A stretch of DNA of 64,000 nucleotides from Antedon mediterranea (Eukaryota > Animalia > Echinodermata): positions 20,655,045 to 20,719,044 of the forward strand of contig NC_092680.1 in the NCBI RefSeq assembly GCF_964355755.1, written 5' to 3'. The position numbers were made by a program, and so were the translations under genes. The notes under the pieces were generated by a model, which saw only the letters and a program-made list of their open reading frames with translations, was not told where the DNA came from and did no database searches. How positions within the stretch are numbered: position 1 is the stretch's first letter; the number at the start of each line of letters is the position of its first letter. Positions 1 to 63,952 of the stretch are shown here, piece after piece.

Positions 1-16
1 GTTATTCCAACAAATT

Positions 17-3059: not shown

Positions 3060-5644
3060 CTTAGCTTGCAATGACAATGATGCACCATGCTGTTGTATGA
3101 GGAATTCCACTATTTCCAAGGTACAATGTTCATAACACAGATATGAATGAAGTGGAGTGTCTCCCTCCTTGATGAATAAAATCATAATTATAAGTTCAAT
3201 ATATTGATAACAGCTATATAAGTAATTGATAAGTGCTAAATAGACAACCAATAAATGTATAGCAAAACACATCTCATCACAAATGGTAAAGTATACTGTG
3301 TGTTCTAAAATATTTTGCAGCTAAATTCATTATAATTTACATCATTGTCTACCTTTGTTACAGTATCTTTACATAGTAATTTATGCAATCTTATGAATAA
3401 TTGTTATACCTATAGTCCAGTAAAAATATGGTTGAACATAGAACAAATTGCAACAGAATTTTTTTTTGTTTTATTTGGTTGATATGGTGAACATGAACAT
3501 CATATCCAAAGTTTACCAAAATCGGACATCGGGAAGTGGGTTAATTAGCATAAATTCAAAATGGCCGCCATTTGCTATTTTAAAGCCCCATATCTCCTTA
3601 ACGGTTGGATTTAGACCACCTATATGCATTACGAGTAGATATAAATGTGATATTAAACATTCTAACTGGCATATTTAAATTTCCATAGGACGTACCTATG
3701 ACGTCATATGGTAGTTGTGACGTCATAAATTATGTTATAAATGCTTAAATGACATTATACTATGCGAACAATTTAGAAACTGCAGAAAAACAAGTTTCCT
3801 AACATTCTCCTTGTTGAAATGAACATAATTTCCAAAGTTTACCAAAATCGGACGTCAGGAAGTGTGTTAATTAGCATAAATTAAAAATGGCCGCTATTTA
3901 CTATATCATTTTGAAGCCCTATATCTCCTTAATGGTGGTTTTAGACCACCAAAGTGCATTGCGAGTAGATATAAATGTGACATTAAACTTCCCAATTAGC
4001 ACATTTAAATTACCATATGACGTAAATATGACGTCATAAGGTAGTTGTGACGTCATATATTATGTTATAACTGCTTAAATGGCATTATCCCATGCTAAAA
4101 AATTTAGAAACTGCAGGAAAACAATTTTCTAACAATTTCCTGTTGAAATGAACATGATATCCTAAGTTCACCAAAATCAGACTTCAAGAGGGTCAATTAG
4201 CATAAATTCAAAATACCATTTTGAAGCCCTGTATCTCCTTAGCGGTTGGGTTTAGACAGCCTATGTGCATTACGAGTAGATATACATGTAAAAACCATTG
4301 AAATTTATCATTAAGTTTCCATTTACAAAATCTTATGAAAATAGATATTCTACAGAACCGTATGAAAGGTGATCATCAACTGTATTTCCGAAACTGATTT
4401 GTACTCAAGCGCACATCTTGTTTTGTGTTTTCTAAAACTACATCTTTTAGAACTTTATCTCTTTAAATTGGTAAAGGAATAAAAAAAATATTGTAATGAG
4501 GCGATTGATTGTGGATCAGGCTATTCAAACCCATCATTCCCACTAACTCATCTCAATTGAAATGAAAATGATAAATGTCATACTGTAGTTTTCTGTATAG
4601 TCAGCATCTCCATTCTGCTCTTTCAAATTTGCTATTTCATTGCATCTGTTTGGTGTCGATCATTTATGAGACAACAACTTTTTATGATGTTTTATATAAT
4701 GTTTATCTTTTGAATGCTGTTTCCACGATTCAATGAGCATATAACAAGGACACTTCATCCTAGTGTTAACTAGGGTGAAGAACCATCAGTTAAAAGATAC
4801 ACATCAACGGAATCCAAAAAGGGGTTGTTAAGGTAATACAGTAATTTTCAAACTTGCCACTACTAATTACAGTATTTTATTTTTCGACAAGACAGTATTC
4901 AACTTCCTTGACAAAAAATGTCAGAAAAATGGAATAGAAACTTTGAATGCAGATGGGGATCTATTAAATATCTTACTTTGCCTTAATTAAAAAAAGCGAT
5001 TGCGTTTTAAGTTAAGACAGAAGAAGCAAAAAATAGTGGAATAATTGGTACTTAAAGAAAACATCTTAAGGAGCAAATTTGCAACATCTTTGTAATGCTC
5101 TGCACTTGCAAAGAAACAGGGGGATGCATTCTATTCTAAGCAAGAACTGTTTGGTCCAAAATTTAAAAAGACATCAGAAAAGCCAATGAAGTAGACTTGC
5201 TGTGCCTACATGTATGGTGGAAGTATTTTGACGGCGCCAACATTACATTTTCTATGTATGTACTTTGGATTGGAAACTTACTGTGATCCAACTCCATATT
5301 TAGGATGGGGTCGAATTATTAAATCCCAGACTCATTACTTAATTAAGAATCCTATTTCTTTAAATATATATGAGATATATGAGATATATATGCAGTTATA
5401 AAAAGTTGCAGTTGCAGAAAATTAACTGGAATGTTCTATTGCATGTTGTGAAGAGTGGCCGAATAACTTCTGATACCCTTCAATTCAAATATTCTTTATT
5501 CATCCTCTATCATGAAAATATACAACAACAATATATGAGAACATAAAAAAGATGAAAAGGAAACACATAAAAACTCAAAAGAGCTTGATTAGTTGTGTCC
5601 CCCTATGTCCCTAACTAGCCTAAAAAACTAAAACATAAATAATA

Positions 5645-5687
<43 letters not shown>

Positions 5688-8600
5688 AATCCTGCAACAA
5701 GTATAATTTTTAAAATTATTTGTAAAATGATAATAAATGTTCTTTAAACAATGATTTAAATATATATATTGATTTGGTACTTTGTAGTTCGTAATTCAAG
5801 TCATTCCACAATTTGGGTCCCACACATGACACAGTAAAACTAGTAGAAGTACGATTACGTTTTCTGAGTCTCATTTTGTCTTTAGATCTTGTATTATAAT
5901 TATGGTAAGAACCATTTTTAATAAAGAGCGATGAAAAACGCACGTCCTGATTAGTAGTAACATTATACATGAAAAGCCCAATTTGGTACTTATTGATATC
6001 CGCAATTTTAAGAAGTTTAAATTTATAGAAACATTCAGTCATTGAATCATTAAACTTTGACCATGTTATAGCTCGTAATGCCCTTTTCTGGAGTTTAAAT
6101 AACTCATCTAAATAACTTGGAAATGTGCTACACCATATTATGTTGCAATAATTTAATACTGGTTCAATGAGTGATTTGTATATTGTCCAGAGAGCATAGG
6201 TTGGTAAAAAATGTCTTACTTTATATAGTATGCCTACATATCGAGATATTTTCCTAGCTGTAACATTGATGTGGTTCTTATATGTGAGAAATTCATCAAT
6301 ATGTACTCCAAGGAATTTAGTCGATTTAACTCTATCTATTCTTTTATTGTTGACATAAATATTTACATTCTCTAAATTACTTGGATTTCGCTGATTGCGG
6401 AAAATTATGTAATTAGTTTTTTTAACGTTGATTGATAGTTTATTGCACATGAACCAATCCGAAACATTTTTTAGTTCACCATTAACTAGTTCTATGAGCG
6501 TATCCAAGTTTTCGTGAGATGCAGATATGTTTGTGTCGTCAGCAAATAAAACAAAAGATAACGAGTTTGAGCAATTAAATACATCGTTAATGTACAAAAT
6601 AAAAAGTAGAGGCCCCAGAATTGAACCCTGTGGTACACCGCAATTTATATCCATCAAACACGAACTTGTGTTATCAATAGACGTAAATTGTTTCCTTCCA
6701 CTAATATAGTTTCTAAACCATTTAAGGGCCGTGCCTCTTATGCCATAGTGTTCCAATTTTTTAAGAAGTATATCATGGTTGATGGTGTCAAACGCTTTTG
6801 ACAAATCAATAAATATTCCGATGGTATTTTTTTTCTTATCAAGCGCATCGGTTATTCGTTCAACCAGATCTATAACGGCCATAAAAGTAGAACTGTTTTT
6901 TCTGAAACCATATTGTGCATTATTAAGGATGTTAAACTTTGTGATATAATTATTTACTCTAATTTGAACAATTTTTTCAAGAATTTTTGAAGCGGTAGGC
7001 AGAATAGAGATCGGCCTATAATTACTGACGTCACTTTTATTGCCAGATTTAAAAATTGGAACTACTCTAGCTACTTTCATACTATCAGGGACCATGCCTG
7101 TCTCAAGAGAGAGGTTAAAGATATGTACAAGAGGAGATGCCACAGCAGCAATAATATGTTTTAGAATGCGATTACTTAAGTTATCAACACCTTCTGAATT
7201 TGAATTTTTGATTTGACTAACTATTTCAATGACCTCTTCTTCATTCGTAGGATTGAAAAATATGGATTGGGATTGACTCTCTTTCATATATTGTTTAAAG
7301 TCAGAATTGTTTACATTTGGTATTTTGTTTGCTAATTCATTTCCAATGTTGGAGAAGAAGTCATTAAAAGCGTCAGACATACCTTTTGGATCACATACCA
7401 AAGTTTTATTACTATGGTTAATTACCTCATTTGGCTTAACACTCGATTTTTTTCTATTTAGAACTTCATTTAAAACTTTCCATGTTTGCTTTGAATCGTG
7501 TCGAGCTGCATCCAGTTTTTTGGAATAATATTGTTTTTTCCGAATTCTAATTAAATGAGTTAATTTATTTTTGTACTTTTTATATATATTTTTTAATAAT
7601 TGTGTTGGGTTTTTAAGGTATTTTTTATAAAGTTTATTTTTCTTTTTTATTGAAATCAAAATTCCTGTTGTGATCCATGGTTTTTTCTTTGTATTACCAT
7701 TTGGCTTATTACTTTTTGTAGGTATGTTATTATCTATGAGATTGGATAGTTTTTTAATAAATAGGTTATATGATGTATTGGTATCTGTGCATAAATATAG
7801 TTCACCCCAATCCTCATTAGAAATAGCAATAAGCAAGTTATTTAATGTTGTATCATTAATTATTTTTTGTTTTGTAATTGGAGCTTGTGTGTTAGTATTT
7901 AATGACAAGTGTGTTGTCATGAAAATGGGTAGATGATCGGTAATGTCAGTGACTATTACTCCACAATGCGAAATGTTATCATCATTTGTAATAATATTAT
8001 CTAAAATTGTAGCAGAAGACGATGTTATTCTCGTGGGTAAGTTGATTAATGGATTAAAAGATGTTGAGTAAATAATGTTTGTGAATTCCTGTGTTGTTTT
8101 TTGAATGTCATATTTTAATAAGTCTTGATTAAAATCTCCTAAGATATAGCAGTTTTTGTTTTCGCGATTAAGTTTATGTAAGATTTCTTCCAGATCAGAG
8201 TTAAATGAGTTGACGTTTGAATTTGGTGGTCGATACAACATACCTACAATAGTATTTTTGCCGTTTGTGTTTATTATTTCTAGAAAAAGTGAATCAATGG
8301 AGTTATCATTAAATACAAAATCATCACGTGTTACGGTGTTGATTTGTTCTTTTAAATATAGACAAACTCCACCACCGACTCTACCTTCTCTATTACAAGT
8401 GTACATATTGTATCCATTGATATTTAATAAGTCAATTGGCGTGTTCTTATTTATCCAGGTTTCCGAGAAACCAAGTACATCAAACGCACGACCTATGGTA
8501 TCTAACATAATGCTAATTTCGTCGAAGTGTTTTGGAAGACTACGTGCATCCATTACCCATGATCTTAACCTGGATGTGGTAAATGTTGTACTATTTTCAT

Positions 8601-11600
8601 GAGATTAAAAACATTTTTTCCTTTCGGTTTCTATATTTTCCCCTTAGAATAATGCCAATTGTCATTATTGTGACAAAATACATGACGTCATATGTCTTAT
8701 GACATCATAGGTACGTTATATGGCAATTTAAATATGCTAATTATAAAGTTTAATATCACATTTATATCTACTCTCAATGCACTTAGGTGGTCTAAAACCA
8801 AGCGTTAAGGAGATATGGAGCTTCAAAATGGTATGATAAATAGCGGCCATTTTGAATGTATGCTAATTAACCCACTTCCTGACGTCCGATTTTGGAAATA
8901 ATGTTCATTTTAACAAGGAGAATGTCAAGAAACATGTTTTCTTGCAGTTCCTAAATTGTTCGAATAGTATAATGTCATTTAAACAGTTATAACATAATAT
9001 ATGACGTCACAACTACCATATGACGTCATAATTACGTCATATGGAAATATAAATATGCTAATTAGAATGTTTAATATCACATTTATATCTACTCGTAATG
9101 CACCTAGGTGGTCTAAATCCAACCGTTAGAGAGATATGAGGCTTCAAAATAGCAAATGGCGGCCATTTTGAAATTATGCTAATTAACCCACTTCCCGATG
9201 TCCGATTTTGGTAAACTTTGGATATGATATTCATTTGAACCATATTTACCAGACAAAACAAAAAAAAATTCTGTTGCAATTTGTTCTAGGTTCACCCTAT
9301 TTTTTACTTATCTTTACTGGACTACTAGTACTAGTCGTGAAAATAATTTCATTTTGAAATGAGTAAATTATTTCTTTTTTGTTAATCCAATACAAGAAAA
9401 CAAATAAGTATGTAATATAAGTATGTGTAAATGTGTGTATGTACTGTCATACAGTAATTGTGTATTATTGTAAATAAAACAATTACCTTATTTTGCAATG
9501 ACAATGATGCACCATGCTGTTGTATGAGGAATTCCACTATTTCCAAGGTACACAATCGATTTCCCACATACAAATGAAGTGGAGTGTCTCCATCCTTGAT
9601 AAACAAAATCATAATCATAAGTTCAATAATATTGATAACAGCTATATAAGTAATTGATAAGTGCTAAATAGACAACCAATAAATGTATAGAAAAACACAT
9701 CTCATCACAGATGGTAAAGTATACAGAGTGTATTCTCTTGCAACTTAATCCTGTAGTAAATTTGTTGCAGTTAAGTTCATTATAATTTACGTCATTGTCT
9801 ACCTTTGTTACAGTATCTTTACATAGTAATTTATACAATCTTATGAATTTTTATACCTATAGTCTTGAAAATAATTTCATTTTGAAATGAGTAAATTATT
9901 TCTTTTTTGTTAATCCAATACAAGAAAACAAATAAGTATGTAATAAGTATGTGTAAATGTGTGTATGTATAGTGTCATACAGTAATTGTGTATTATTGTA
10001 AATAAAACAATTACCTTATTTTGCAATGACAATGATGCCCCATGCTGTTGTATGAGGAATTTCACTATTTCCAAGGTACAATATATATTTTTCACATGCA
10101 AATGAAGTGGAGTGTCTCCATCCTTGATGAACAAAATCATAATCATAAGTTCAATAATATTGATAACAGCTATATAAGTAATTGATAAGTGCTAAATAGA
10201 CAACCAATAAATGTATAGCAAAACACATCTCATCACAAATGGTAAAGTATACTGTGTGTATTCTCTTGCAACTTAATCCTGTAGTAAATTTGTTGCAGTT
10301 AAGTTCATTATAATTTACATCATTGTCTACCTTTGTTACAGTATCTTTACATAGTAATTTATGCAATCTTATGAATTTTTATACCTATAGTCTTGAAAAT
10401 AATTTCATTTTGAAATGAGTAAATTATTTCTTTTTTGTTAATCCAATACAAGAAAACAAATAAGTATGTAATAAGTATGTGTAAATGTGTGTATGTACTG
10501 TCATACAGTAATTGTGTATTATTGTAAATAAAACAATTACCTTATTTTGCAATGACAATGATGCCCCATGGTGTTGTATGAGGACTTTCACTATTTCCAA
10601 GGTACAATGTTGATAACGCAGGTACAAATGAAGTGGAGTGTTTCCATCCTTGATGAACAAAATCATAATCGTAAGTTCAATAATATTGATAACAGCTATA
10701 TAAGTAATTGATAAGTGCTAAATAGACAACCAATAAATGTATAGCAAAACACATCTCATCACAGATGGTAAAGTATGCTGTGTGTATTCTCTTGCAACTT
10801 AATCCTGTAGTAAATTTGTTGCAGTTAAGTTCATTATAATTTACATCATTGTCTACCTTTGTTACAGTATCTTTACATGGTAATTTATGCTATCTTCTGA
10901 ATCGTTACACCTCGTCTTTAAAATAATTTCATTTTGAAAAGAGTAAATTATTTCTTTTTCGATCCAATATAAGAAAACAAAAAATTACCTTATTTTGCAA
11001 TGACAATGATTCCCCATGCTGTTGTATGAGGACTTTCACTATTTCTGAGGTAGGGTTATATCTACTACTCACATACAAATGAAGTGGAGTGTTTCCATCC
11101 TTGATGAATAAAACCATAATCATAAGTTCAATAATATGATAACAGCTATATAAGTAATTGATAAGTGCTAAATAGACAACCAATAAATGCATAGCAAAAC
11201 ACATCTCATCACAAATGGTAAAGTATGCTGTGTGTATTCTCTTGCAACTTAATCCTGTAGTAAATTTTTATTTATTTTTTTTTTTTAACCATATTTAATG
11301 AGGGTGATCCATCCAGCTGTTGCTGATCATTAGGGACCCTCAGAGGTTCACAAGACAAACATATACACAAGATGCTCTACATAAACAAAGTCTTATACAA
11401 GTCTTTGGGAGTGGGGTAATTTGGTCCTTAGAAAAAATCCTGACATGTGACGGGACTTAAACCCAGGACCATTGGAGTGGTAGACAAGCATCATAACCAC
11501 CAAGCCACAACTCCACTGTTGCAGTTTAAGTTCATTATAATTTACATCATTGTCTACCTTTGTTACAGTATCTTTACATAGTAATTTATACAATCTTATG

Positions 11601-14600
11601 AATAATTGTTATACCTAGTCGTGAAAATAATTTCATTTTGAAATGAGTAAATTATTTCTTTTTTGTTAATCCAATACAAGAAAACAAATAAGTATGTAAT
11701 AGGTATGTGTAAATGTGTGTATGTACTGTCATACAGTAATTGTATAATTGTGAAAAAAAATTACCTGATTTTGCAATGATAGTGATTTACCATCGTGTAT
11801 GAAGAATTCCACTATTTCTAAGTTAGGTTCGATATCATACAAGTATATTCGATAATGCAGATAAAAATGAAGTGGAGTGTCTCCATCCTTGATAAACAAA
11901 ATCATAATCATAAGTTCAATAATATTTATAACAGCTATATAAGTAATTGATAAGTGCTAAATAGACAACCAATAAATGTATAGCAAAACACATCTCATCA
12001 CAAATGGTAAAGTATACTGTGTGTATTCTCTTGCAACTTAATCCTGTAGTAAATTTGTTGCAGTTAAGTTCATCATAATTTACATCATTGTCTACCTTTG
12101 TTACAGTATCTTTACATAGTAATTTATACAATCTTATGAATAATTGTTATACCTAGTCGTGAAAATAATTTCATTTTGAAATGAATAAATTATACATATC
12201 TTTTTGTTGATCTATTACAAGAAAAAAAATGTATGTAATAAATGTATGTAAGTTTGTGTATGTACTGTCATAAAGTAATTGTGTATTATTGCAAATAAAC
12301 AATTACCTGATTTTGCAACGACAATGATGCCACATGCTGTTCTATGAGGAATTTCACTATTTCCAAGGTACAATGTTCATTCCACAAATATAAATGAAGT
12401 GGAGTGTTTCCTTCCTTGATGAATAAAATCATAATCATAAGTTCAATAATATTGATAACAGCTATATAAGTAATTGATAAGTGCTAAATAGACAACCAAT
12501 AAATGTATAGCAAAACACATCTTATCACAAATGGTAAAGTATACTGTGTGTACTCTCTTGCAACTTAATCCTGTAGTAATTTTGTTGCAGTTAAGTTCAT
12601 TATAATTTACATCATTGTCTACATTTGTTACAGTATCTTTACATAGTAATTTATGCAATCTTATGAATAATTGTTATACATAGTCTTGAAAATAATTTCA
12701 TTTTGAAATGAGTAAATTATTTCTTTTTTGTTAATCCAATACAAGAAAACCAATAAGTATTTAATAAGTATGTGTAAATGTGTGTATGTACTGTCATACA
12801 GTAATTGTATAATTGTGAAAAAAAATTACCTTATTTTGCAATGATAGTGATTTACCATCATGTACGAGGCATGTCACTATTTCTAAGTTAGGTTCTGGAT
12901 CGTACTTGTAACGCAAATACAAATGAAGTGGAGTGTATCCATCCTTGATGAACAAAATCATAATCATAAGTTTAATATATTGATGCTACATAAAGTAATA
13001 ATTGATAAGTCTTAAATAGACAACCAATAAATGTATAGCAAAACACATCTCATCACAAATGGTAAAGTATACTGTGTGTATTCTCTTGCAACTTAATCCT
13101 GTAGTAAATTTGTTGCAGTTAAGTTCATTATAATTTACTTCATTGTCTACATTTGTTACAGTATCTTTACATAGTAATTTATGCAATCTTATGAATTGTT
13201 ATACTTAGTCTTGAAAATAATTTCATTTTGAAATGAGTAAATTATTTCTTTTTTGTTAATCCAATACAAGAAAACAAATAAGTATGTGTAAATGTGTGTA
13301 TGTACTGTCATACAGTAATTGTGTAATTATTGTAAATAAAACAATTACCTTATTTTGCAATGACAATGATGCACCATGCTGTTGTATGAGGAATTTCACT
13401 ATTTCCAAGGTACAATGTTGATAATACACATACAAATGAAGTGGAGTGTCTCCATCCTTTATAAACAAAATCATAATCATAAGTTCAATAATATTGATAA
13501 CAGCTATATAAGTAATTGATAAATGCTAAATAGACAACCAATAAATGTATAGCAAAACACATCTCATCACAAATGGTAAAGTATACTGTGTGTATTCTCT
13601 TGCAACTTAATCCTGTAGTAAATTTGTTGCAGTTAAATTCATTAATTTACATCATTGTCTACATTTGTTACAGTATCTTTACATAGTAATTTATGCAATC
13701 TTATGAATTGTTATACTTAGTCTTGAAAATAATTTCATTTTGAAATGAGTAAATTATTTCTTTTTTGTTAATCCAATACAAGAAAACCAATAAGTATGTA
13801 ATAAGTATGTGTAAATGTGTGTATGTACTGTCATATCAAGCTGCAGACCTGTTACATGTGGTGTCCCCAAGGGTTCGATTCTGGGCCCACTTCTCTTCAT
13901 AATTTATGCAAATGATTTCAATAATATATCTAATGTCATGTCGTCAATACTGTTTGCGGATGATTCAAGTCTGTTTTATTCACATGATGATCCAGATAGT
14001 CTCTGTGACATCGTTAATCAAGAACTAAAAAAGGTTACTACTTGGATACATGCAAACAAGCTATCACTAAATATGCTAAAAACCAATTTTATGTTGTTTA
14101 GTAACAAATATAGTATGTTACCAAAAGATATTATTTTCAACAATGTTCCTATTAATCAAATAACCAACACAAAATTTCTTGGTATATTTATTGACGACAG
14201 ACTTGACTGGAAAGCTCATGTTAATTACCTTTGCAAATTATTATCAAAAAATGTTGGCATGATGTATAAATTGAAATCAATATTTCCTCAAAAAGTATTA
14301 AATATTTTATATTCTACTCTTATTTTATCGTACTTAAATTATGGTGTTCTTGCTTGGGGAAATGCTTCAAAATCAATTATTACTAAAATTTTATTAATCC
14401 AGAAACGAGCTGTCAGAATTATCTCAGGGGTAACTTTTCGTGCTCACACCCAAGATCTCTTTCAAAAAAATAAAATATTAAAAATTGAGGATCTCTATAG
14501 ATTTAATGTTGGTGTCATCATGTTTCAATTAACCGTCGGACACTTACCACCTATAATATCCAGTAAATTCACTCAAAATAAACAATACCACACTCATCAA

Positions 14601-17600
14601 ACAAGACAAAAAGATCAGTATCACCTGCCATTTACTCGAACTAGACTTAAAATGAATACCCTTGTATATACTGGACCTAAACTCTGGAATTCTCTTCCTT
14701 TATCTCTTAAAAAATCTCATAACTGTGCTTTATTTAAACGTCAATTTAAACTATTATTGGTTGAAGGTTCTTTGTAAATTCTTTTATTATTGACATATTT
14801 GATATTTCTTAAATAATTTATATAATCTATTTAGTTATCCGCACTTGGCGGATAACTCCTTGTGATTGTATGGGATCATCATTTTTTTTTTTTTGGTTAT
14901 CCGCAACTAGTAAGTTGCGGATAACCCTTGTTATTGTAAAAATCTTTTTTTTCATCTTTATTCTTCTTTCTTTCCCAGATTTTTGTTGCAGCTATATCTC
15001 AAATTTTTATAGACATAACTTTTTATAACTTTGTCATAAGATTGACCTGTAGCTGTAGATGTGCAGGAAACTTCATTATATGACGTTAGAGTCGCGCAGC
15101 GTAAGTTACGCGCGATTTTATGAATTTCAACGATTGATCATAGATTATAAACCAAAAGTCATTTTGTATTGACACTTGGTGAAAATTTAAGTCATATCAA
15201 GGGCAAACTTTCTATGGATTAAAAATGGCATGTTTTACAAGAAGTTACGCGCGCACGCGCATTTGAAGTTTCAAAATGCGCAAAATTAATTTCTAACCAA
15301 CTTTCTGCGCTGATCATGACATTTTGAGCATGTCAAAAATTACCGCGCGCGCGAAAATATTTACGCGTATGGTGCGCACGGAGTACGAAAATCATGTTTT
15401 TTTCTCTTGAATTGTAATTTTCCAGCCTTTCCTAGTCATTTTAAAAAAGATTGACATCATTTCAAATTAAAATGACGTCATATGAACACGTTGATTTAGG
15501 CAATTTGCGTGCGTTTTAGTTGCAAAAGTGACAAAATATTGTCAAAATTATGCTTACTTTGAATCTATTATAGCTCCTCAGGATCAACCGTTACCCCCAA
15601 TTTTTTTAATTTAATATGTAAGCAGATATGTTGTAGATATGAATTCATGCAGAATCTTTATCCCTCGGATGTTATGACGTCATCGTATGGCCACACGAAT
15701 GTAAAATATTGGATTTTTGACTGTTTGGCTATTGCTCATTACATTAAATAGAGCGCATATCACTTATACGTATTCCATTTCCCCAGATATTTTAATACTG
15801 TCTAGGTCAATCAACTATATTTCGCATGAGTTAAAAATATTTTAATTTTTATGACGTCATCATTTCTAAAAATGTAAATAACGTGGGTCACCTATTTTCA
15901 TCTTTACAGTAAATTTCAATCTGTTATAGCTCGTCAGGATAAAAAGTGATCATCATGATTAAAACGTTTTCTGGAAGCTATTGGATTGTAGATACAAATT
16001 CATGTGAATATTTTGCCAATCAGATGTTGTGACGTCATCATATGGCCAGTTGAATACAAAAAGTCGTATTTTCATATTTTGCGTCATAGTTCATCACATT
16101 TAAAAGAGCGCGCATCTGTATTTTACGGATTTAAATTTCTTAAAATTTGTATTAATGTAATTATTTAGATAATTATCTTCTAAAATTGTTATCTTTATAG
16201 GTCGATTTGATGACGTCATCGTGTTAATAATTGGATTTAAAAGATGGGTCTCGTAATATCGTCTATGCTACACTGTATATAACATATACAGCATATTCTG
16301 TAAACACTGTAATATGATGTATGCTACAAAATAGGTACAATTCAGCACTGTAAACATATTTATTTCATGTCATAGGATGGAATAATAATTGTCGAGGTTC
16401 ATATGGTTAAGTAGGTGCATGTTGCGTTTGCGCGGATAACCCGAACTCGTCAAAGTGACGAGTTCAAATCTAGTTTTTCTGTATTATTAGTTATCCGCTT
16501 AGTAGCGGATAATTAGTTATCCGCTTAGTAGCGGATAACTTCTTGTAATCGTCCTGTTACTTTTTTTCTTATTTCTTTCTCCTCCATTTTTGTGCCTCAC
16601 GTATCTCAAAAACTTGTAAACATAACATTTCATAACTTTGTCAACATATGGGCATTTACGTGAAGTTGTGCACCTCCTATTTTTGAATGACGTCAGAGTT
16701 GCGCAACGTGACTTACGTGCGATTTTATGATTTTTTATGATTGATCATAGACTAAAAACCAAGCATAAATTTGTTTTGACACTTTGTGAAAATTTAAGTC
16801 ATATCAAGGGCAAACTTTTTGTGGATTAAAAATGCCATGTTTTACAAGACGTTACGCGCGCACGCGCATTTCTCCTCTATTTTTGTATCTCGCGTATCTC
16901 AAAAACGTGTAAACATAACATTTCATAACTTTGTCAACATATGGGCATTCACGTGAAGTTGTGTACCTCCTATTGTGAATGACGTCAGAAATGCGCAACG
17001 TGACTTACGCACGATTTTATGAATTTCGCGTATTTAACATAGATTTAAAACCATATAACAATTTAAATTGAAACTTAGCAAAAGTTTAATTTATATCATG
17101 CGCTAACTTTCTGTGGAAAAAAAATTGCGTGTTTTACACAAAGTTACGCGCGCACGCGCATTTAAAATTCAAAATGCGCAAAATTAATTTTTAATCAACT
17201 TTCTACGCTGATCATGACATTTTGACCATGTCAAAATTTCCCACGCGCGCGAACAATTTTATGCGCGTGGTGCGCACGTAGCGCTAAAAGTATTTTTTTT
17301 TTATTGAATTATGTTTTTCCAGCCTTTTATAGTAATTTTACCAATTTTAAAACAATTTCGACTTACAATTACTTCATACGGGCACGTTGAATTGGATATT
17401 TTACGTGCGTTTTTTATGAAAAAGTTCAAAAATTTGTCAAAATTATGCCTTTTTTTAAACAGTCATAGATTCTAAACAACGAGGTGAACTTTTTTTTAAT
17501 TACATATTCTGGAAGTTGATGAGTTGTAGAAATCGGATCATGAATCAATATGGCTAACCGGACATTGTGACGTCATCGTATTGCCACACGAATGTAAAAT

Positions 17601-48800: not shown

Positions 48801-51800
48801 CATTCCATTTCTGTTCTACTGCTACAGTAATTACCATCTTTTTATACCTAGTAAGTATATTTACAGGTGGTTGTAAAAGTTGGTCACCAATTTTGCTGTG
48901 GTCTTCTTCTATCTTCTGAAATATATATATACTTAATGTTATGTTTATGACTCTGTACATATTTGTTTCTTAATTATCTGAGGGAAGTGCACAAGGCAAT
49001 CAGCATGTTCACTTCTTTACAGCATATTTTATAATGATCACGAATCAATTCAATTTTGATTTATTAATACCTAAATTTTCAATTAATAAACTGTAAACAA
49101 ATTTTGAATTTTCTGGCATCAATATGTCATATGTTAGCTCAAATTTTGTGCCTCCGAATCTCCAGGTATGAAGGTGGTCTCAGGGAAATTCATTTTTCAT
49201 CGTGTACGAGAGAAAAAATATTATGCCAAGTTAACTACTCTAGGATAATATTATTATCGACCAAATATAAGAATGAGAAGTAACAGTGACTTCACTCTTT
49301 ACAGAATTATAAAATCGTGACAAAACAACTATTTAACTTATCTATATTTTGAACCGGTAATGTAAGTAAAATAATACAAATTTTAATTACATTATTTAAA
49401 TAGAGTTTAAAACAAGAAATATTTCTTACAAAAAACGCTGCTCGCTTATTGAAAAATATTTTTTATTTCAAATGTTTTTTAATGTGTCATTTTATTGTCA
49501 CATAATAGTTATTTTACCTGAAAAAAATGTAATTTAAAGCAACAAATACTTAAATTGTCTGTCAGACAATGGTTTTTGGGTTTCTTTTCTTTTTTTATAT
49601 GTGAATAAATATTATATTTTTGTTACAGAAGTGAATACTCAATTTCTGTCACTTTAGTTAATTTTATTGCTAAGGTCAAATCTGGGGGTCACTTCATCAC
49701 CCTAGATATTTCAATTGTGAAGTATCCTATTACAAACACAAACTTTAATGGACTGTTTCGATAATAATTCAATGAATATCTGACAGTGAATATACCAGAA
49801 ATGCTTAGGGATTTGTAATTTTAGCATGACATGTCCTAATAGACTCTTTCCCAGACGTTTTTTGGGTCTACTGTGAATCAATAAATTATAGTGGAGTTTC
49901 CATTTTCACAAAACTGTCTGTCCTTAGAACTATAACTGCTGCTTGCTTTAGCTTCTGATTGAGTAGTCCTAATGGGACGTAGCGGGCTAGAGCAGCAGCG
50001 TGAAAAATTATAATAATTACCTTTTCATATGACGGCTTATAAAGTCTTGTTTGAAGTTGATATTCATCATCTGCAAGCATCTTTCCAAAAATTCTTAACG
50101 ACATTATTTTCTTAACACGAAAGACATTTTTAACAAGACCCATTAGTGCATGCGAACAGAAATGATTCAAAGTTATACAACATCGACCTTTGCTTAAAGT
50201 AAAATGTATGTTCTTTTCACCATTTTTTAATGGTATGTGTTTCCATTCATCTTCAATGCGATCTTTAACAAGTAGAGTAAATTCCCAATTCTCTTCATCT
50301 ACAGCATCGTGTGGAAAAGACAATGAACAGGGCTTGTTGAAGATGGTGCCTTCTGGTCCACATTTAACAATAGGTGATATTATTGATTCAAGTGGAAGGG
50401 ATACGACAGGCAGATCTGTTTCCTCAAAAACGTTTTCTAGCGATATGTTAACTTTCTTTCCTTCTTCAATTGCTCCAGGATATATCTCCAACTTTATGTT
50501 TTCATTTTTAAGATGAAGTGTTCCACCAGTAGAGCCCACAATTAGCTCCAGTCGATCTGCAGAATGAAAATATCAGATATTAGTGATGGTGTTAATGGTG
50601 TTTTTCATGTCGTAATCATTATCTACTAGTAATTTTCTGTCAAAAATGTTGAGTTAAGTATATTCCAGTATTTAGAGCCCAATTTTAAATCTCTGCCACA
50701 CATATATAGTGGCCGAGATATGGAAATGCTACATAGATAAAAGTGAAAGGTCAATAACCTTTACTTCTAACCATTTTGTGACAAAATGTCATTTCAAACA
50801 ATTTGAGCCATAATTTGTATCTCTACGGTCAGTTGTTACCAAGATACAACATATCAAATTCAAAGGTCAAACATTTTTGGCCAAAATGTTCCATATAGAG
50901 CAAATATAAATATGTATGTTCTGAGTGTCATACCAGAAATATGTCAATAAACCAAGTAATTTAGAAGATATGGACAATTTTTGCGGTAGTCCAAACTCTT
51001 TTTTTCTGTTATTTAGTACAACCAATATTACCAAAATCAATTGAAAATACTTTTGTTGCAATTTGTTGAGGTTGCCCCCGTTTTTTAGTTAGTTCTACTC
51101 TACTATTGGTTGTGATTGGCGAGTCATTGTGGTACCTGCATTTTGGTCCTCATCACCACTGCATAAAAATGATAACAATTTCTATAGGCCTAGTATATAA
51201 TGCATTTTTACAGTTCATGAAGAAATTAGTGAATTACTTAATAACCCTTTTTATGTCATTACAATAGTAAATAAAATACCTGAATTTGAACTTGCTGTTC
51301 CAACATCACCTGCAACAAATAAAATTCACAATAATGCTTTCAATAGATGCTATAAAAATGCCATATTGTGTATGGCTGCACAGTACACTACAGATTGGTT
51401 TTTCATTCACCAGATTAAGTTAGTAGTCTTGCTAAACTGTATTAATTACTATTTTAATTACTTATTATTTGAAATTTAATTATGTTAAAATATTGGTGAT
51501 GACGATAAGCCAAAACAAACCATCAGTAAATGACAGCAACCTATCCCTCCTCTGTTCAAGATCTAACGTTTCTGCAGCAACTGTCATCTTATTCTCTTTC
51601 AAATGTTCAATAAATGATTGCAATTTGTCTTCTCTTAGGATGCCCCTTTCTTCTAGATCTAGTATCACAGTCCACTGGTTGTCATGTTGTTTTCTAGAAA
51701 CATCGTTTAGATGGATGAGCTTTGTTACATTGTCTTGGGAAAGCTTTTTTCCAAAATCAATCAGCTTCTGTCGGTACGTTGTAAAAGTTCTTACAAGATG

Positions 51801-54800
51801 GTCGGATTCCTCAAACATGTTCTTCAGATATTTGTTAGCCTCAAGAGCACCTTTGGTACTGGTGACACTGATGATATCAATAAGAACTTTAAAGTTGGTT
51901 ACGGTAAGATGGCCAGCCTGTTTCAATAAATTAAACAACTTCATGGTGGTGTCAGCCTTCTGTAGAGCATTGTAAGGCGTTATCAGATCTTTGCACAACA
52001 CCTTCAGCATATCAAGTGAAACATGCTCATCATACCAATTCGATACTTGTACCAACATTGTCTGAATTTTTTTCTCAGGTGATTCTGTATAAAAACAATA
52101 CTTACGATATCAACAGTATATAGTATAAATTGGTATATACAACCAACGAATAAGTAACAATCTTTTTTGTTATTTTACTATATATAAATATATACCTCCA
52201 AATACCCTCAATGACACTGACTCTAGCTTAGGCGCTGACACTGGCATTAGCTCTGACTCAAACTTTGAGACTGACTCTAGATCTGATGCTGGCAATGACT
52301 CTGGCTTTGGAACTAACTCTTTAGTAAGACCTAAATGCAATAACACAATACTAGCATTTGTATAGTTTTTATTTTGATTGATAATGATGAATAGTGATGA
52401 CAACGATTGAGATATAATTATGATGAAGTAATGACGACAATAAAGCATTAAAAGTCCAACTTACCAGTTGAAAAAAAGTGCTTGATATGAGCAGTTTTCA
52501 TAGCCTTCTTTCTTCCACATGGAACCAAATCATTTTGCAAACACTTGTCAAAATCAATCAAGTGATGATTACTTGGTGCACAAGCAGTGCACAACACACA
52601 TAGATTGTAGCCAATGCCCTCATAGATATTGCAAACAGTTTTCAGTTGCTCCTTCAAATAGCTTAGTACCTAAAACATGAGGTCAACGTGTTATTTATAA
52701 ATTTATATTATGTGATAACTATGTTTAAAAGTAATAATCTTTTATTTATTACCTCCATGCAGACACTTGGTTCTGGTTCAAATATCACCTCCTCTGTTTC
52801 TTTGCCATCATTAATTTCAGTCCAGCGTGATATTTCAAGCTGCGAAAATGAAAGATATTCACTTTTCACAAACTCATCTGACTATTCCCTAATACACAAT
52901 TGAACATATCTGTATGATAGAGGCATGGTGTATGGGCAGACTACTGTATAAACCAAAAATGCACAATGTTACCTATATATTTTATAGAAATTTTCAAAAG
53001 TGTACCATATTGATAGTAAAAGTAGTAATCAACTTCATACCTTTAATGCATATGGTTTTTCCTTTTCATGGTTAATTTTGACAGAACCTAAACTGACAGT
53101 GTGATTACTAAATTTGAAATCACTACGATTACGGAACACTTCTGAATCATCACTACCCTTTTCGGTCATCAATTCCAGGAATGCAACAACCAAAGTGTTG
53201 TACACAGCATCAGGAAGAAAGTCTGTCGGAGTCAGATAAATTGATACCGTTTGTGTGTCATCTGCTTTGACTTTCAGAAAGTCTTTTTTGTCAACTTTCA
53301 TTCGGCAGGGAACCAGGAATACCCGATTACCTTCTTCAATTCCCTGTTAATATAAACATCACAATTACACATAAATTGGTACAAGTGATTAGTAAGAGCT
53401 TAATCAAAGAAACGATTAAAAGTTTATCGTATTTGCCAACCTTTGTCTTCTCAAAGAGCAAACGAAAAACTTTCATCAATTCTACAAAGACATCAAAGAG
53501 ATCTTCATCTTCGTTTCTCCACAAATAACGTAGTAACTTTTCCTCAAGAACTCCTTCATTGCTCAGCTTTTCCCATAGCATCTGTAATTGCTTCCGATCT
53601 TCTGCTTCATTCTGTGCACAAAAAACACAGTAAAAATAGAACAACTGATATATTAAAGCAACCAATATAATACCAAGTTTCAAAACTATAGAAGGCTACA
53701 TTACTCAGGGTCATATTATTTTACTCTAATGTGAAATCTAGTATTATATATAATATGCCATGCTTATTATATATACCTACCACTGTAATAGTTGGCGTAA
53801 CTACTGTGATAACTTTAGTCAAAATTTTAATCATCCAGCAAATATTTGTTATCACAATGTTTCTTAATTTCTCATTAGTGCCGTTATACATGATTATTCC
53901 AGTGTCATTCAGATAAGTTATCACAGTGGTGAGCACATGTTCGGATATACCACATTGTCTTGCAATCTCACATACCTATAAATACACAAATGACATTTTA
54001 ATAAAACGGTATTTCTCAACAAAATTAGCATTAGTAAACAACAGTACTGTTTTCCTCCAACTACAAGTTAAATTATGCTTACATCAGGGAGTCTTATTTT
54101 ATAACATTCTGTGAGAAAAGCCTATACAAAGTTTAGCCTAAACAAAGAGAGTTTACTGCTTTGAATAGATTGTTTTACATGACAGCTGTTTTTAATGTGT
54201 ATATTATTTCTAACTGTATATATTTGGATTTGTGTTGTAGAAAAATGTTTTTATGTTGAAAACCAAATTAAAACCTTACCTCTGCTAAGGTAATGTTTAA
54301 CCTTGTTTTCCCAATTTTTTGCAACTTTTCCTGCAAATCAACCCACTTTACAGGAACTTTCTTCACCATTGCTTTCATGTATCTACCAACGTTTCGCTTA
54401 AGTTTTTCAATACCTTTATGTGACTTGTTATCCACCATGTACATTTCACAATCTACATGCTTGGCATACGGCATCCCTTTCATTGCATCAAACATCTGCA
54501 TGAACATCTCCTCAGCCTTTATTTGATGAAATTGTATAATCATTATAACTTTACTAATAATAAAATATGTTTCTTTTCTATCTTATACTACAAATCTGTT
54601 GAGCATATTGCAGGTTCAGTTTTGTCAAATGTTTTGTTGAATAGTTATATAAATGTATACTACAGTTATTACCTTCATCTGCTTTTCTAATTTTGTGCCT
54701 GGCAATTTGTCCATATGGGTAGCAACCAAACAGATAGGAGGTGACTCTATGCTCTTGCCATTAATTAAAATGGGGTTTCCTGAACCATGTTGTGACACAG

Positions 54801-57800
54801 TATGTTCATAAATAGACCTTACCCAGAACAAATTCACGTCCAAATTAGTCATACCAAGCGATTCCTAAAATCAAATATGGATAAACAAAAAAGGATATTG
54901 AAATTGAAACTACAATTTAACACATTTGTATTAAAACAAACAAAATTGCTAAATAATAAATTTTACTTACTATTGTCGAATCTCGTGGATTAGCTAGCTC
55001 ATTCAAGTTGTCCTCGACATTAAATGTAACACAGTATGATACTTTATTTGTGAGGAAAAACTGAAAAAAAAATACAAGTTAAGGGACCATGTATCTTTTC
55101 TTTATCTTAATTCCTTATTGTAATTAAATACCTGATTCGTTATAACTATCTTTGGATGTCATACTGGTAAAGATGGTTAAACATTGTTTGGTGTTTTAGT
55201 CAGTACCATGCACATATTATATGCAGTAATTTACAGTAATTTAATAACTGAATTTTATAATGAATTTCTAAAAATGCCGACATTTTTAGAAAGAAATGTC
55301 ACTGATATCAGATACACTGTACTAGTCTACAATATTACATTATATCGAATAGTAAAATATAGTGGTAGTACTTTACAGAATAAGTAATTATGTATTCTTT
55401 CAAGCTTTCATGTACAAAACATACTTATTCAGGTGAAGGTTAGAATAATATATAAATGCATAAAGTTTGTAAAAATGGTATTTGGGTAAGAGAACACAGT
55501 TTTACTCTGGTGGTCCATAAATTTAACTTATAGGCTTACATTGTTTGTTACTACTTTCTATTTAGGTCTAGAATAAATTATAATAACGGAAGCGAACAGA
55601 TACAATTACTTGTATCTATATTAATACCAAAATAAGGAAAATCTAGTTTTAAAGTCCAAAATTTATCTTATTAGTGTAATAAAAATGCCCCAAAACAAAC
55701 ATACCCTGTGTGTTATGTAGTAGTCTAGTTGACCAGCATAGTCCCATATACTAGTGATGTCACTCACATTTACTTTTTCTTTTCCAATTGTTTTCATCAA
55801 AATATTCAAAAGTTGCCCCCCAATTGTTGTATCATTGCTTTCTAAAACAAACATTACAATAACAGTTTTCTTTAATTAAAGACTGTGTGTATATGAAATC
55901 TACAAAATAGATTGATCAATCTGTTGTAAATCTGCAGATGATTTTAGAATGATTTTTTAATTCAGTAGTCTGTGCCTACCTTTCCCTAATTTCTTATCCA
56001 CATTTTCTGCTAATGCATGTGTACGTATTTTCTTGGATAACTCAACACCTTTACAAAGCAAGAAATATAATAAAAACATGATTGTAGACAGAGGGGGTAC
56101 GAGTTAGAGAAAGAAATACAAATAGTAGGCCCTACATATAAATAGAAATAAATAATTCATTCCTTTTAAACTTTGATAGGGTGCAAATTTATGGAATTGG
56201 TGCAATATTTCTAAAGACCACTCGAAAATATTTTAATTAAATTTAATTTAGAGCATACACATACAAATTCTTTCTAAAATTGTTCAATCTGTCTGTCTTT
56301 ATACTATGTATGTAACTGAACAATACTTTGTTTATTTGTTAATGTTCTGAGAGTTTGTTTGGTGCTGACTCACCATCTACATCTTCCACCTTCTTCCACT
56401 CACTACAATCCTTCTTTGTTGCTTGAAACACTGTAGTTGTTACGATACCATCTGTTGATGGCTCTCTGGAATTAAACCTATTATAATAATGCATAGTAAA
56501 GTTAAACATAATTAAAGAATATTCAAGACTGAAACATCTATTATTTACTTTTGTAGAACTATGCATTTAATAGTAAAAAAATCATCTAAAAATTCAATTC
56601 AATCTTCAATTCAACAGGGAATAATGTTTATTTGAATAAACAAACAGGCTTTCTATCAAAGTACTATCATCACTCATAGCGGTTATTTGTTACCTTTTAC
56701 CAAGCATAGCCTTTACACAACTAGTCTTGCCAGCACCTTCTTTCCCAAGAAACATACACCTTGAATTCACAACAGCAATCTCACCATTTTGAAGCTCATC
56801 TTTGTATATTCTAATAGCATATTTACCCTTTGAATATATCTCTGCTGGAACTAATAATTCTAATATAAAAATATTAATATAACAAATGTTTCAAATGTCA
56901 AATTTACTTTATTATTTGTTTTCTTACATAACCTCTTACAAGCTAATAATATTAACATCTAAATAGTCATTGATAAATAATTTAAATTTTGTCAAAGATG
57001 TATTTTTCCACCCAAAACATTAAAAATTTGAATAAGCCATTATGCAGTTTTAATAAAGTTATTCACTTTCGTGGAGAAAAAAAAGAACAAAAATAATAAG
57101 CAAAACAATGTCTGACAGACGACAAATATGACTATTTTTTTGCTTTAAAGAAAAAATAAAATTGTGTTCAAGTAGGCTACTCTAAATCCTTATTTTTTTC
57201 AATCCAATTTTTGGTCAAAGTGAACAAGCTTATTTACGATTGGAATATACTGCTGGAATTAATAAATGTAATATAAAAATATCAACATTTTAAACAATTT
57301 AAAATAAATTTTTATTGTTCATAAATAACCTCTTACAAGTTAAAAATAACAAAGTAAGGCATCACTTACTGTCAAAGTCAAATTTTAAAATCTTGTTTCT
57401 TTCATCTGGGTCTGTGTATCTACTATTTTCTAAAACAGTCATTGGTGTATTTCCTTCCTATAAACAAATTAATGTTTTAGTTAGTATTAAAAAATAATAT
57501 GAATTGATAATATTGGCTACTGAGCGGTACTATCCAGACACCCTTATCAAATAAAAAACCATTATCAATAGTAGACTATGATATCTATAAATATGAAAAT
57601 AAACACACATTAGTATGCTAATAATGTGTGAAAGAGACACACATGCTAGTATGCTTCATATACAGACACTACTGTACCATTAAACCAATGGTGATTTCAT
57701 GCTATCTCAAAGTCAGATTAAATAGCAAACTCCTTTATTGTATTTATTTATTATTAATAAGTATGTGTAAATGTGTGTATGTACTGTCATACAGTAATTG

Positions 57801-63800: not shown

Positions 63801-63952
63801 ACTGTCATACAGTAATTGTGTATTATTGTAAATAAAACAATTACCTTATTTTGCAATGACAATGATGCACCATGCTGTTGTATGAGGAATTCCACTATTT
63901 CCAAGGTACAATGTTGATAATACACATACAAATGAAGTGGAGTGTCTCCATT
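45896..63952 (-). CDS. Gene 1 (5'-partial): ankyrin array - Roc - COR - DED-DED - ZU5/UPA-like - DED-DED ROCO protein
   Basis: Phase-compatible AG/GT exons. ANK: 63845-63952, 63321-63428, 62720-62827, 62452-62553, 57827-57934. Cap: 57370-57457. Roc: 56694-56859, 56374-56477, 55980-56048, 55705-55841, 54971-55060, 54673-54864. Roc/COR: 54280-54516, 53781-53975, 53441-53611, 53041-53343, 52753-52839, 52465-52669. Linker 52196-52330; DED-DED 51521-52084; microexon 51280-51309; ZU5 50021-50556; 48784-48915; 48292-48433; microexon 48051-48080; DED-DED 46158-46715; last exon 45957 to stop 45896. Confidence 0.85.
46158..46715 (-). CDS. Tandem death effector domain exon B
   Basis: FNDLKCDLGKHY...LKCCLFDVIP...DLFNVLHDHCEIKPDDVTIL and YRKRLLRALKEVGQDELKDI...MVFYLESKLLL. 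Confidence 0.72.
50021..50556 (-). CDS. ZU5 domain exon
   Basis: VGSTGGTLHL...LEIYPGAI...ISPIVKCGPEGTIFNKPCSLSFPH...ITLNHFC matches the ZU5 pattern of UNC5/PIDD/ankyrin. Confidence 0.88.
51521..52084 (-). CDS. Tandem death effector domain exon A
   Basis: Two ~80-aa helical units with DED-like patterns (LDMLKVLCKDLI...LFNLLKQAGHL...NFKVL; YRQKLIDFGKKLSQDNV...LDLEERGIL). Confidence 0.75.
52465..54360 (-). CDS. COR domain exons of gene 1
   Basis: YLNDTGIIMY, IVITNICWMIKILTKVI, LMKVFRLL, FLVPCRM and FLPDAVYNTLVV follow the Roc domain as in ROCO proteins. Confidence 0.85.
54280..56859 (-). CDS. Roc GTPase domain exons of gene 1
   Basis: P-loop FLGKEGAGKTS, switch I STDGI, G3 IWDYAGQLDYYITH, G4 LVATHMD, G5-like MVDNK, followed by the COR start VPVKWVDL. 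Confidence 0.92.
59168..61063. mobile_element. MULE/Mutator-like MITE nested in the Kolobok-like element
   Basis: Long TIR GGGTGTCACGAAAGCTCAGACC...; 10-bp direct repeat AGTGTAGCCT on both flanks. Confidence 0.8.
60186..60990. mobile_element. TGT...ACA MITE (Ginger-like) nested in the right TIR of the MULE-like element
   Basis: TIR TGTTATGCGCGATTTGAACGATTTGCGCAATTTGAAATTGCGC; 5-bp TSD GTTGG; many TTGCGCAA palindromes. Confidence 0.78.

Follow-up and report, generated by a model that had tools for sequence, protein, structure and literature searches.

One-repeat ankyrin exons with a hypervariable patch in Roc-COR-death-effector genes of the feather star Antedon mediterranea: candidate intracellular non-self sensors

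Two arrays of ankyrin repeat exons

The analysed window, a stretch of 64,000 nucleotides, comes from the crinoid Antedon mediterranea, so that its earlier assignment to an animal was correct. Its minus strand contains 24 stop-free ankyrin exons distributed between two genes, five in gene 1 and 19 in gene 2 (Table 1). As described in an earlier note on this DNA, all of them are phase 0-0 and each encodes a single ankyrin repeat, of 36–41 aa; every exon was located and its borders were checked. Exon length varies from 102 to 123 nt and is always a multiple of 3, the splice sites read AAG (acceptor) and GTAATT (donor) in 24 of 24 cases, and not a single exon has a stop, a frameshift or a lost splice site. 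The first ankyrin exon of gene 1 scores 37.6 bits with the Pfam Ank model (cut-off 21.1). Nearly all exons are distinct (23 of 24), as are 21 of the 24 variable patches considered below. A search of the window with two exon queries revealed no degenerate or inverted further copies outside the 24 exons.

The introns were previously thought to form uniform cassettes of ~525 bp. They are indeed near-identical, but of 22 introns lying within the genes, no more than 11 have the standard length of 405–420 nt; three others have 164–171 nt, two have 340 and 493 nt, and six have 665–6319 nt, several of these long introns holding transposon or other repeat inserts. Several transposon inserts reside in gene 2 introns, and cassettes differ in the inserts that they carry. 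The window has a GC content of 32% and includes a satellite repeat.

Table 1. Features of the two ankyrin-exon genes within the window (all on the minus strand)
Feature	Coordinates	Strand	Remarks
Gene 1 ankyrin exons (n=5; span 63952-57827)	63952-63845, 63428-63321, 62827-62720, 62553-62452, 57934-57827	-	further exons may lie past the window end
Gene 1 C-terminal capping-repeat exon, phase 0-1	57370..57457	-	matches P0003 cap; cap exon joined to next exon in RNA-like contigs
Gene 1 Roc-COR, 12 exons	52465..56859	-	P-loop (GKEGAGKT), STDG, WDYAGQ and ATHMD motifs intact
Gene 1 Pro/Glu/Ser-rich linker exon	52196..52330	-	
Gene 1 first tandem death-effector-domain (DED) exon	51521..52084	-	Pfam DED E 9e-9
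Gene 1 ZU5 exon (50556-50021), UPA-like exons, two 30-nt linker exons	48051..51309	-	Pfam ZU5 E 1.4e-19; UNC5B ZU5-UPA E 1.7e-8
Gene 1 second tandem-DED-like exon, divergent (46715-46158), plus stop-containing last coding exon	45895..46715	-	weak Pfam DED E 0.015
Broken third tandem-DED exon copy, in-frame stop	45133..45656	-	downstream of gene 1 stop
Gene 2 N-terminal capping-repeat exon	25940..26032	-	tblastn with P0003 N-cap: 67.5% identity, E 7e-16; start exon not among identified exons
Gene 2 ankyrin exons (n=19; span 25752-3060)	3060..25752	-	starts 25752, 25480, 23414, 22888, 22609, 22086, 21566, 19812, 19286, 18762, 13456, 12943, 12414, 11887, 11099, 10648, 10122, 9594, 3167; gene continues beyond window
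Recent multi-cassette duplication (gene 2)	13845..21566	-	two intronic LINE fragment copies: 21130-20205 and 14800-13845

Domain architecture of gene 1

Gene 1 was modelled as one open frame of 27 exons with GT-AG introns, encoding 1588 aa in the order ankyrins, Roc-COR, tandem DED, ZU5-UPA and tandem DED. The Roc acceptor in this model was set from a paralog and from RNA-like contigs. The latter belong to two sets (X8 and X9), neither recorded as RNA, which were counted as RNA-like on the grounds of exon enrichment and the absence of GT-AG introns that they skip. The four Roc motifs correspond to G1–G4 of the G-domain. In P0002, which is the RefSeq model for gene 1, Pfam COR-A scores 66.4 bits (cut-off 35.3), with COR directly following Roc; Pfam Roc is above its cut-off in the paralogs P0003 and P0006, and the family profile matches structure 3dpu (E 1e-12), which we take to be the Chlorobium Roco structure. 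At least three of the gene 1 Roc-COR introns are bridged by RNA-like contigs (15 of 152 joints listed). No STAND domain (NACHT, NB-ARC) was detected by Pfam in gene 1 or in the scanned paralogs. The predicted structure of the first tandem DED exon (pLDDT 86.7) has its best fold matches in the caspase-8/cFLIP tandem DED (TM 0.72). The second exon of this type shares 24% identity with the first, and the C-terminus of gene 1 is the same as that of P0002. It should be noted that P0002 begins inside Roc and lacks the ankyrin, cap and P-loop exons; thus, such arrays may be missed elsewhere.

The proposed ROCO-DED scaffold below the ankyrin repeats is therefore borne out by the single open reading frame of gene 1, and likewise in paralogs, but not for gene 2, which runs off the window and for which tblastn found no Roc-COR within it.

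Family members and splicing

The COR domain matched 29 models, 21 from Antedon and eight from Anneissia. In a quick midpoint-drawn tree of 31 rows chosen from the matches, with most short fragments omitted, the two genera fall on separate sides; this tree depicts the genus split and no order of events. The Anneissia models have few and divergent repeats, suggesting that the cassette state may be young. Annotated paralogs possess 1–11 repeats, compared with 19 in gene 2. Among the matches listed by the word-based search, there were no full-length relatives outside crinoids. A 41-aa exon query matched only P0003; since proteins of up to 2000 aa were searched, this does not make gene 2 an unannotated gene.

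Both ankyrin-ankyrin and cap-Roc splicing were found in RNA-like contigs at the level of the family, and variant repeats occur in such contigs from two studies. The ankyrin-to-cap junction was found in the letters of a paralog, and that of gene 1 itself is absent among the six joints listed, so the splicing of variable exons to Roc-COR is corroborated for the family and not for this particular joint. Two RefSeq isoforms of a paralog, P0283 and P0192, differ by the skipping of exactly one repeat, and exon skipping probably adds combinations.

A hypervariable patch in the ankyrin repeat

Sequence diversity of the exons is concentrated in codons 11–14, a patch of 12 nt with pi of 0.41, which, as anticipated in the earlier note, is above the intron diversity, by a factor of ~8 (patch pN 0.45 vs. 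intron pi 0.051), and exceeds that of every intron window. Among 404 intron windows, pi reaches at most 0.32, in a window with four haplotypes in 11, and the maximum haplotype number for any of them is six in 11, compared with 14 patch haplotypes in 16 exons. The stretches directly flanking these 16 exons have pi of at most 0.12. The framework, which had been described as constant, varies about as much as the introns: its pN is 0.058 and its pS 0.042, compared with an intron pi of 0.051, both exon framework and introns being ~5% divergent. In codons 12 and 13, variation is confined to the first two positions, the third being invariant. All six length changes observed in exons are in frame, compared with three of 14 in introns (p 0.002). 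A 6-nt duplication resembling slippage accounts for one patch variant (25480 vs. 22609). Tyrosine makes up 21% of the patch, which is rich in TAT/AAT codons; AT bias may account for this, and we draw no conclusion from it.

In the predicted ankyrin fold, the patch covers the last part of helix 1 and extends into the loop behind it, which reaches 26 residues in one paralog. The beta-turn positions have three states each and 0.8 and 1.2 bits, compared with 1.8–2.8 bits in the patch. Positions 11–14 are also highly variable in three other Antedon arrays (P0006, P0049 and P0050), each of which has its own homogenised framework.

Selection on the patch

Codon tests were performed on 16 of the 24 exons, excluding seven with patch-length changes and one exact duplicate. 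Patch codons, which were picked after the data had been seen, demonstrate 20 replacement vs. one silent change, whereas a simulated neutral hot spot gives ~18:5 (p 0.006–0.028). Patch omega is 9.6–12.2 under a shared silent rate, and a neutral patch with its own rate is rejected in six of six settings (p 0.006–0.032). In agreement with the suspected diversification, the M2a site model is better than M1a (p 5e-7 to 8e-9; sites 11, 13, 14 and 21), although recombination violates the assumptions of such tree-based codon tests. However, a neutral mixture model with fast codons fits the exons equally well as positive selection (LR 0.2, -1.3 and 2.75). Judged by these codon patterns, positive selection on the patch is supported but not watertight; the tests speak against a neutral hot spot (p 0.006–0.03), although one mixture model would allow it. 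The framework has omega of 1.3–1.6 with 26 replacement vs. seven silent changes, i.e., no net purifying selection, suggesting that some exons may be dispensable.

Recombination and duplication of cassettes

The cassettes are mosaic and common to both genes. In a recombination test of 14 exons, 53% of informative site pairs are incompatible (PHI-like p 0.001), and patch distance is uncorrelated with flank distance. Each gene 1 cassette is closest to a gene 2 cassette, except for one tandem twin pair, and patch DNA is identical in gene 1 (63952, 63428) and gene 2 (13456). A recent whole-gene duplication could contribute to the repeats common to both genes. Between cassettes 19286 and 13456, the intron downstream of the exon has two differences in 405 nt, compared with six in the 12 nt of the patch. 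Cassettes 21566 and 18762 differ at one of 1185 downstream nt and at two exon nt, both of them loop replacements. The two LINE fragment copies of the multi-cassette duplication (Table 1) have one substitution in 926 aligned nt, and exons 63952 and 63428 are identical within cassettes that are ~0.5% different. Nothing points to somatic rearrangement, and cassette exchange likely takes place in the germline. A mechanism driven by reverse transcriptase was dropped, as the LINE and Gypsy ORFs belong to ordinary transposons and no template copy was found with two exon queries.

Comparison with known repeat-based receptors

The brown-algal LRR-ROCO genes, proposed immune receptors with one repeat per exon and exon shuffling (Zambounis et al., PMC3341825; Teng et al., PMC11378527), were rightly named as an analogy. 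Both systems have a repeat array ahead of Roc-COR, one repeat per exon with the same phase on both sides, exon shuffling and birth-and-death gene clusters. The algal repeats have a few positively selected sites on the binding face, for which the crinoid patch is a candidate counterpart. In contrast to the 72-nt, phase 2 LRR exons of the algae, the animal exons encode ankyrin repeats, measure 102–123 nt and are in phase 0; the variable site extends into a loop that differs in length between copies, inverted intronic copies were not found with two exon queries, and C-terminal tandem DED and ZU5-UPA effectors, absent from algal ROCOs, are present. Alternative splicing is reported for the algae, whereas the crinoid has a single RefSeq paralog isoform pair.

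In fungal NLRs of high internal conservation (HNWD WD40; NACHT-ANK), repeats are 80–100% identical with about four hypervariable positions, ankyrins included (PMC13449251). The design principle is already described for these NLRs. Like them, the crinoid genes combine repeats that are almost identical apart from a few hypervariable positions with concerted evolution, the recurrence of the same repeats in different genes and coupling to cell-death effectors (in the crinoid, a predicted tandem DED fold). Unlike these NLRs, the crinoid genes use a Roc-COR GTPase as the switch rather than NACHT/NB-ARC, encode repeats in separate exons with introns within the recombining unit, and have C-terminal effectors.

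Among animal ROCO proteins, DAPK1 and LRRK1/2 likewise combine ankyrin repeats with Roc-COR, and DAPK1 additionally carries a death-fold domain at its C-terminus and acts in cell death (PMC6337361). The crinoid proteins differ by the lack of a kinase, by tandem DEDs with no death domain, and by being multi-copy, lineage-specific and hypervariable. In the literature, we found no animal ankyrin-ROCO case that works like brown-algal LRR-ROCO or fungal HNWD genes.

DARPins are the top fold matches of the crinoid ankyrin model (Z 21.4, rmsd 1.8 A over 196 residues), sharing with it an N-cap, interchangeable internal repeats and a C-cap. The suggested likeness holds for codons 11–12, which align to residues 56–57 in helix 1 of DARPins, listed as randomised (PMC3602593). 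It fails for codons 13–14 and all length variants, located in a helix1-helix2 loop that is missing from DARPins. Of the six randomised concave-face positions, the two in helix 1 thus have hypervariable counterparts, and variation at the turn positions is modest. The crinoid repeats are natural and germline-encoded, with much of their diversity in a helix1-helix2 insertion of 2–8 residues.

Possible function and alternative explanations

Variable ankyrin exons, which in gene 1 read in frame into GTPase and cell-death domains, make these proteins likely immune sensors. We consider it probable that they represent an expanded feather-star ankyrin-Roc-COR-death-effector family of intracellular non-self sensors with germline-shuffled exons and a selected loop. 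In the germline, the near-identical introns would let one-repeat exons be copied and swapped, by putative unequal crossing-over and short-tract gene conversion, and selection would diversify the short loop, the candidate binding site. Ligands, possibly pathogen molecules, would then drive Roc-COR dimer or GTP switching, and DED-DED contact may recruit a caspase-8-like partner and lead to caspase-type signalling. A bolder version, which we regard as doubtful, is a natural ankyrin binder library with an antibody-CDR-like, Tyr-rich, length-variable loop, intron-guided reshuffling between genes, per-cell exon skipping and a ROCO switch to caspase-8-type death. It would provide an invertebrate deuterostome with a combinatorial repertoire of intracellular receptors, the ROCO equivalent of NLRs.

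Diversification may also be real but serve allorecognition, symbiont or gamete discrimination, or the guarding of a fast-evolving host protein. The closest functional precedent, the fungal HNWD genes, is known from allorecognition (PMC13449251), and a ligand cannot be named from sequence data. Genus-specific expansions with truncated copies, tandem DED and ZU5-UPA nevertheless fit the conflict systems of sessile marine invertebrates (PMC8195603), and inspection of the gene 1 frame, whose N-terminus lies beyond the window, showed no obvious signal peptide or transmembrane segment; we find a role other than direct pathogen sensing unlikely. Neutral concerted evolution, with conversion homogenising the array while an AT-rich, slippage-prone or conversion-resistant loop drifts under weak constraint, appears quite improbable. 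It would accommodate the neutral mixture model, framework omega near 1.4, the slippage-like duplication and the TAT/AAT-rich patch in a window of 32% GC; it does not readily explain invariant third positions next to varying first and second ones in codons 12 and 13, the 20:1 replacement excess, a haplotype count unmatched by any intron window, exon indels that are all in frame, or the same variable positions in three arrays with different frameworks.

It is very unlikely that the long arrays are a reservoir, with most exons skipped or in decaying copies and serving as donors for shorter expressed paralogs or Dscam-like splice variants. Such a role would suit the AAG acceptor and symmetric phase of all cassettes, the isoform pair one repeat apart, the lower repeat numbers of annotated paralogs and the transposon inserts in gene 2 introns. 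However, exons with a stop, frameshift or lost splice site number zero, inverted or decayed intronic copies like those of Ectocarpus were not found with two exon queries, and the isoform skip is one annotation, which mis-mapped reads could produce. Uncollapsed haplotypes or over-expanded repeats in the assembly are hardly credible: the identical exons 63952 and 63428 in cassettes ~0.5% apart would fit such an artefact, whereas 23 of 24 exons are distinct, different cassettes carry different inserts and variant repeats recur in RNA-like contigs of two studies.

If the favoured sensor interpretation is true, receptor diversification by repeat shuffling, known from algal LRR-ROCO genes and fungal NLRs, would extend to a deuterostome animal, with another type of repeat, a GTPase as the switch and death effectors as an explicit output. 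It would also provide a testable function for the kinase-less ROCO expansions of invertebrates and a simple system for ligand control of Roc-COR, the module mutated in LRRK2, through a repeat arm. Finally, evolution appears to use the ankyrin helix1-helix2 loop as a length-variable surface, whereas DARPin design keeps this loop fixed.

Ankyrin exon arrays and the scaffold of gene 1

A six-frame search of the window placed all 24 ankyrin exons on the minus strand, in two neighbouring genes. Each exon is 102–123 nt long with an AAG acceptor and a GTAATT donor, and all 24 are in phase 0-0 and free of stops, as the earlier note had read them. Distinct patches, the hypervariable segments after TPLH, are present in 21 of the 24. 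The array is real and functional-looking. The near-identical intron cassettes described previously were recovered in part: introns of standard length (405–420 nt) differ on average by 5.1%, but only 11 of the 22 within-gene introns have this length, the others being shortened or insert-bearing.

Ankyrin exons and other features of the window
Feature	Position	Strand	Description
Gene 1 ankyrin exons	63952-57827	-	5 exons; six-frame search
Copy of the beginning of Roc exon 1	57230-57350		Degenerate; inside the intron preceding that exon
Duplicates of gene 1 linker, DED and COR-end exons	43100-46100	-	Decaying; past the gene 1 stop
Satellite	32300-42359		Between gene 1 and gene 2; 10 kb, 74-bp unit, about 137 copies, 92% matches
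Tandem repeat	26840-27263		Upstream of the gene 2 N-cap exon; 69-bp unit, about 6 copies
Gene 2 N-cap exon	26032-25940	-	
Gene 2 ankyrin exons	25752-3060	-	19 exons; six-frame search
LINE ORF	5716-8604	-	Within a gene 2 intron; intact-looking, 962 aa (endonuclease, RT), then a T-rich tract on the minus strand
Gypsy-type pol frame	2-2143	+	Just downstream of the window's last gene 2 exon; integrase, RT and RNase H pieces

The gene 1 model joins 27 exons with AG/GT ends into a single open frame of 1588 aa, encoding five ankyrins, a C-cap, Roc-COR, a linker, a tandem death-effector domain (DED), ZU5-UPA and a second DED-like pair. The P-loop and switch motifs are intact; Ank, COR-A, DED and ZU5 are all backed by Pfam, and the predicted fold of the first DED exon (pLDDT 86.7) resembles the caspase-8/cFLIP tandem DED (TM 0.72, E 6e-4). 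The COR exon matches RefSeq model P0002 (XP_071965522.1, from the crinoid Antedon mediterranea) at 100%; that model starts within Roc, without the ankyrin, cap and P-loop exons, and ankyrins ahead of Roc-COR are annotated in paralogs P0001, P0003, P0006, P0008 and P0024. Gene 1 is a true ROCO. The proposed ROCO-DED scaffold stands for gene 1, whose open frame continues into Roc-COR and the tandem DED, but not directly for gene 2, which runs off the window ahead of any Roc-COR and for which we infer the scaffold from paralogs.

The COR exon search gave 29 matches, 21 from Antedon and 8 from Anneissia japonica. In a quick tree of Roc-COR cores, a single branch divides 17 Antedon models from 14 Anneissia models, consistent with separate expansions. 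The decaying duplicates past the gene 1 stop suggest that the effector end, too, grows via exon duplication. C-termini are swapped among family members, P0001 carrying a second Roc-COR, and P0023 and P0028 (Anneissia) HEPN domains.

Diversity of the patch and probable shuffling of the cassettes

Among the 16 of 24 exons used, those lacking patch-length changes (one duplicate dropped), patch codons 11-14 have pN 0.45 and pS 0.19, compared with 0.058 and 0.042 in the framework, the rest of the exon. The expected excess of exon over intron diversity was confirmed, patch pN far exceeding the 5.1% of standard introns, and the haplotype diversity of the patch is matched by none of the intron windows. 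The framework, previously called constant, is so relative to the patch, but its omega of 1.3-1.6 (changes 26:7) reveals no net purifying signal.

One alternative to selection is a neutral hot spot. A tree-free count gave 20 replacement and 1 silent patch changes, versus about 18:5 in a simulated neutral hot spot (p 0.006-0.028). Partition models gave omega 9.6-12.2 and rejected a patch that is neutral but evolves at a rate of its own (p 0.006-0.032). M2a outperformed M1a (p 5e-7 or lower; selected codons 11, 13, 14 and 21). Against selection stand a mixture model in which the fast codons are neutral and whose fit is equally good, the post hoc choice of the patch, the effect of recombination on the trees, and the lack of a net purifying signal in the framework. 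Independent support for patch selection comes from the intron haplotypes and from three further observations: in-frame length changes (6/6 in exons, 3/14 in introns); cassette pairs near-identical in the following intron yet sharply different in the patch; and high variability at positions 11-14 in three other Antedon arrays (8, 6 and 11 repeats, with their own frameworks), whose patches reach 26 residues. The exon of one cassette pair, 21566/18762 of gene 2, may straddle a breakpoint, since its upstream introns differ by 3%. Overall, the array is probably under diversifying selection.

In the 14 exons used to test recombination, incompatibility affects 53% of informative site pairs (PHI-like test, p 0.001), and the distance between patches shows no relation to that between their flanks. 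Gene 1 and gene 2 have one identical patch in common. A recent duplication spanning several cassettes can be recognised by its two copies of a LINE fragment; the order of the exons has diverged since. The shuffling would run through the introns, by unequal crossing-over and short-tract gene conversion.

Predicted structure of the ankyrin arm

The predicted fold of the P0003 ankyrin arm (pLDDT 94.9) has DARPins and RNase L as its best matches, with Z scores within 1 of each other (highest Z 21.4, at rmsd 1.8 A over 196 residues). Codon 11 lies at the end of helix 1 and codons 12-16 in the loop to helix 2. Codons 11-12 align to DARPin residues 56-57 and codons 1 and 3 to residues 46 and 48, all four given as randomised in PMC3602593 (for further DARPin background, see PMC4308713, PMC8229355 and PMC9611651). 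Per-site diversity is 1.8-2.8 bits at codons 11-14, and 0.8 and 1.2 bits at codons 1 and 3. The suggested likeness to DARPins extends to codons 11-12, whereas the remaining patch is an insertion that DARPins lack.

Splicing

Of the sequencing runs listed, none is recorded as RNA. X8 (organism A) and X9 (organism B), from different studies, show exon enrichment, and among 15 of the 152 joints their contigs span three modelled introns of GT-AG type, which those of the DNA-like X1 do not. For a stretch with one ankyrin exon, one contig in each of X8 and X9 joins ankyrin end to ankyrin start; in two X8 contigs a cap exon is followed directly by sequence that matches Roc exon 1, and in another X8 contig the cap follows an ankyrin end of paralog type. 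An unspliced cassette contig is also present in X9, and gene 1's own ankyrin-to-cap junction is absent among the six joints listed. The splicing evidence is at family level. On another chromosome, a truncated paralog has two RefSeq isoforms whose difference is exactly one repeat of 36 aa; this suggests in-frame skipping but could also stem from mis-mapped reads.

Possible function and comparison with known systems

The ankyrin arm would most likely bind a fast-evolving ligand via its stacked patches; binding could shift the GTP or dimer state of Roc-COR, by analogy with PMC6337361, and the tandem DEDs would then nucleate a caspase-8-type complex. The immune reading builds on the signal of selection, on the birth-and-death expansion of the family and on the effector domains (compare PMC8195603). 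ROCO receptors with one repeat per exon are described in brown algae (PMC3341825; PMC11378527), and ROCO domains fused to TIR in Aplysia (PMC9334734). PMC13449251 describes fungal NLRs, ankyrin types included, whose repeats are near-identical apart from about four hypervariable positions and are exchanged between genes; NLRs of this kind are said to exist in animals too. Gene 1 appears to work like the algal LRR-ROCO and the fungal high internal conservation receptors, yet is a member of neither. In mainly open-access literature, and apart from the forty animal domain combinations of PMC11378527, no report was found of ankyrin-ROCO cassette genes in crinoids or any other animals.

In P0050 (XP_071943401.1), one of the three other Antedon ankyrin arrays, the patch between helix 1 and helix 2 is 9-26 residues long; the model matches a KH domain weakly and contains no Roc. 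In abalone (Haliotis), the P-loop proteins P0054 and P0061 carry a long array of near-identical ankyrins at the C-terminus, variable after TALH.
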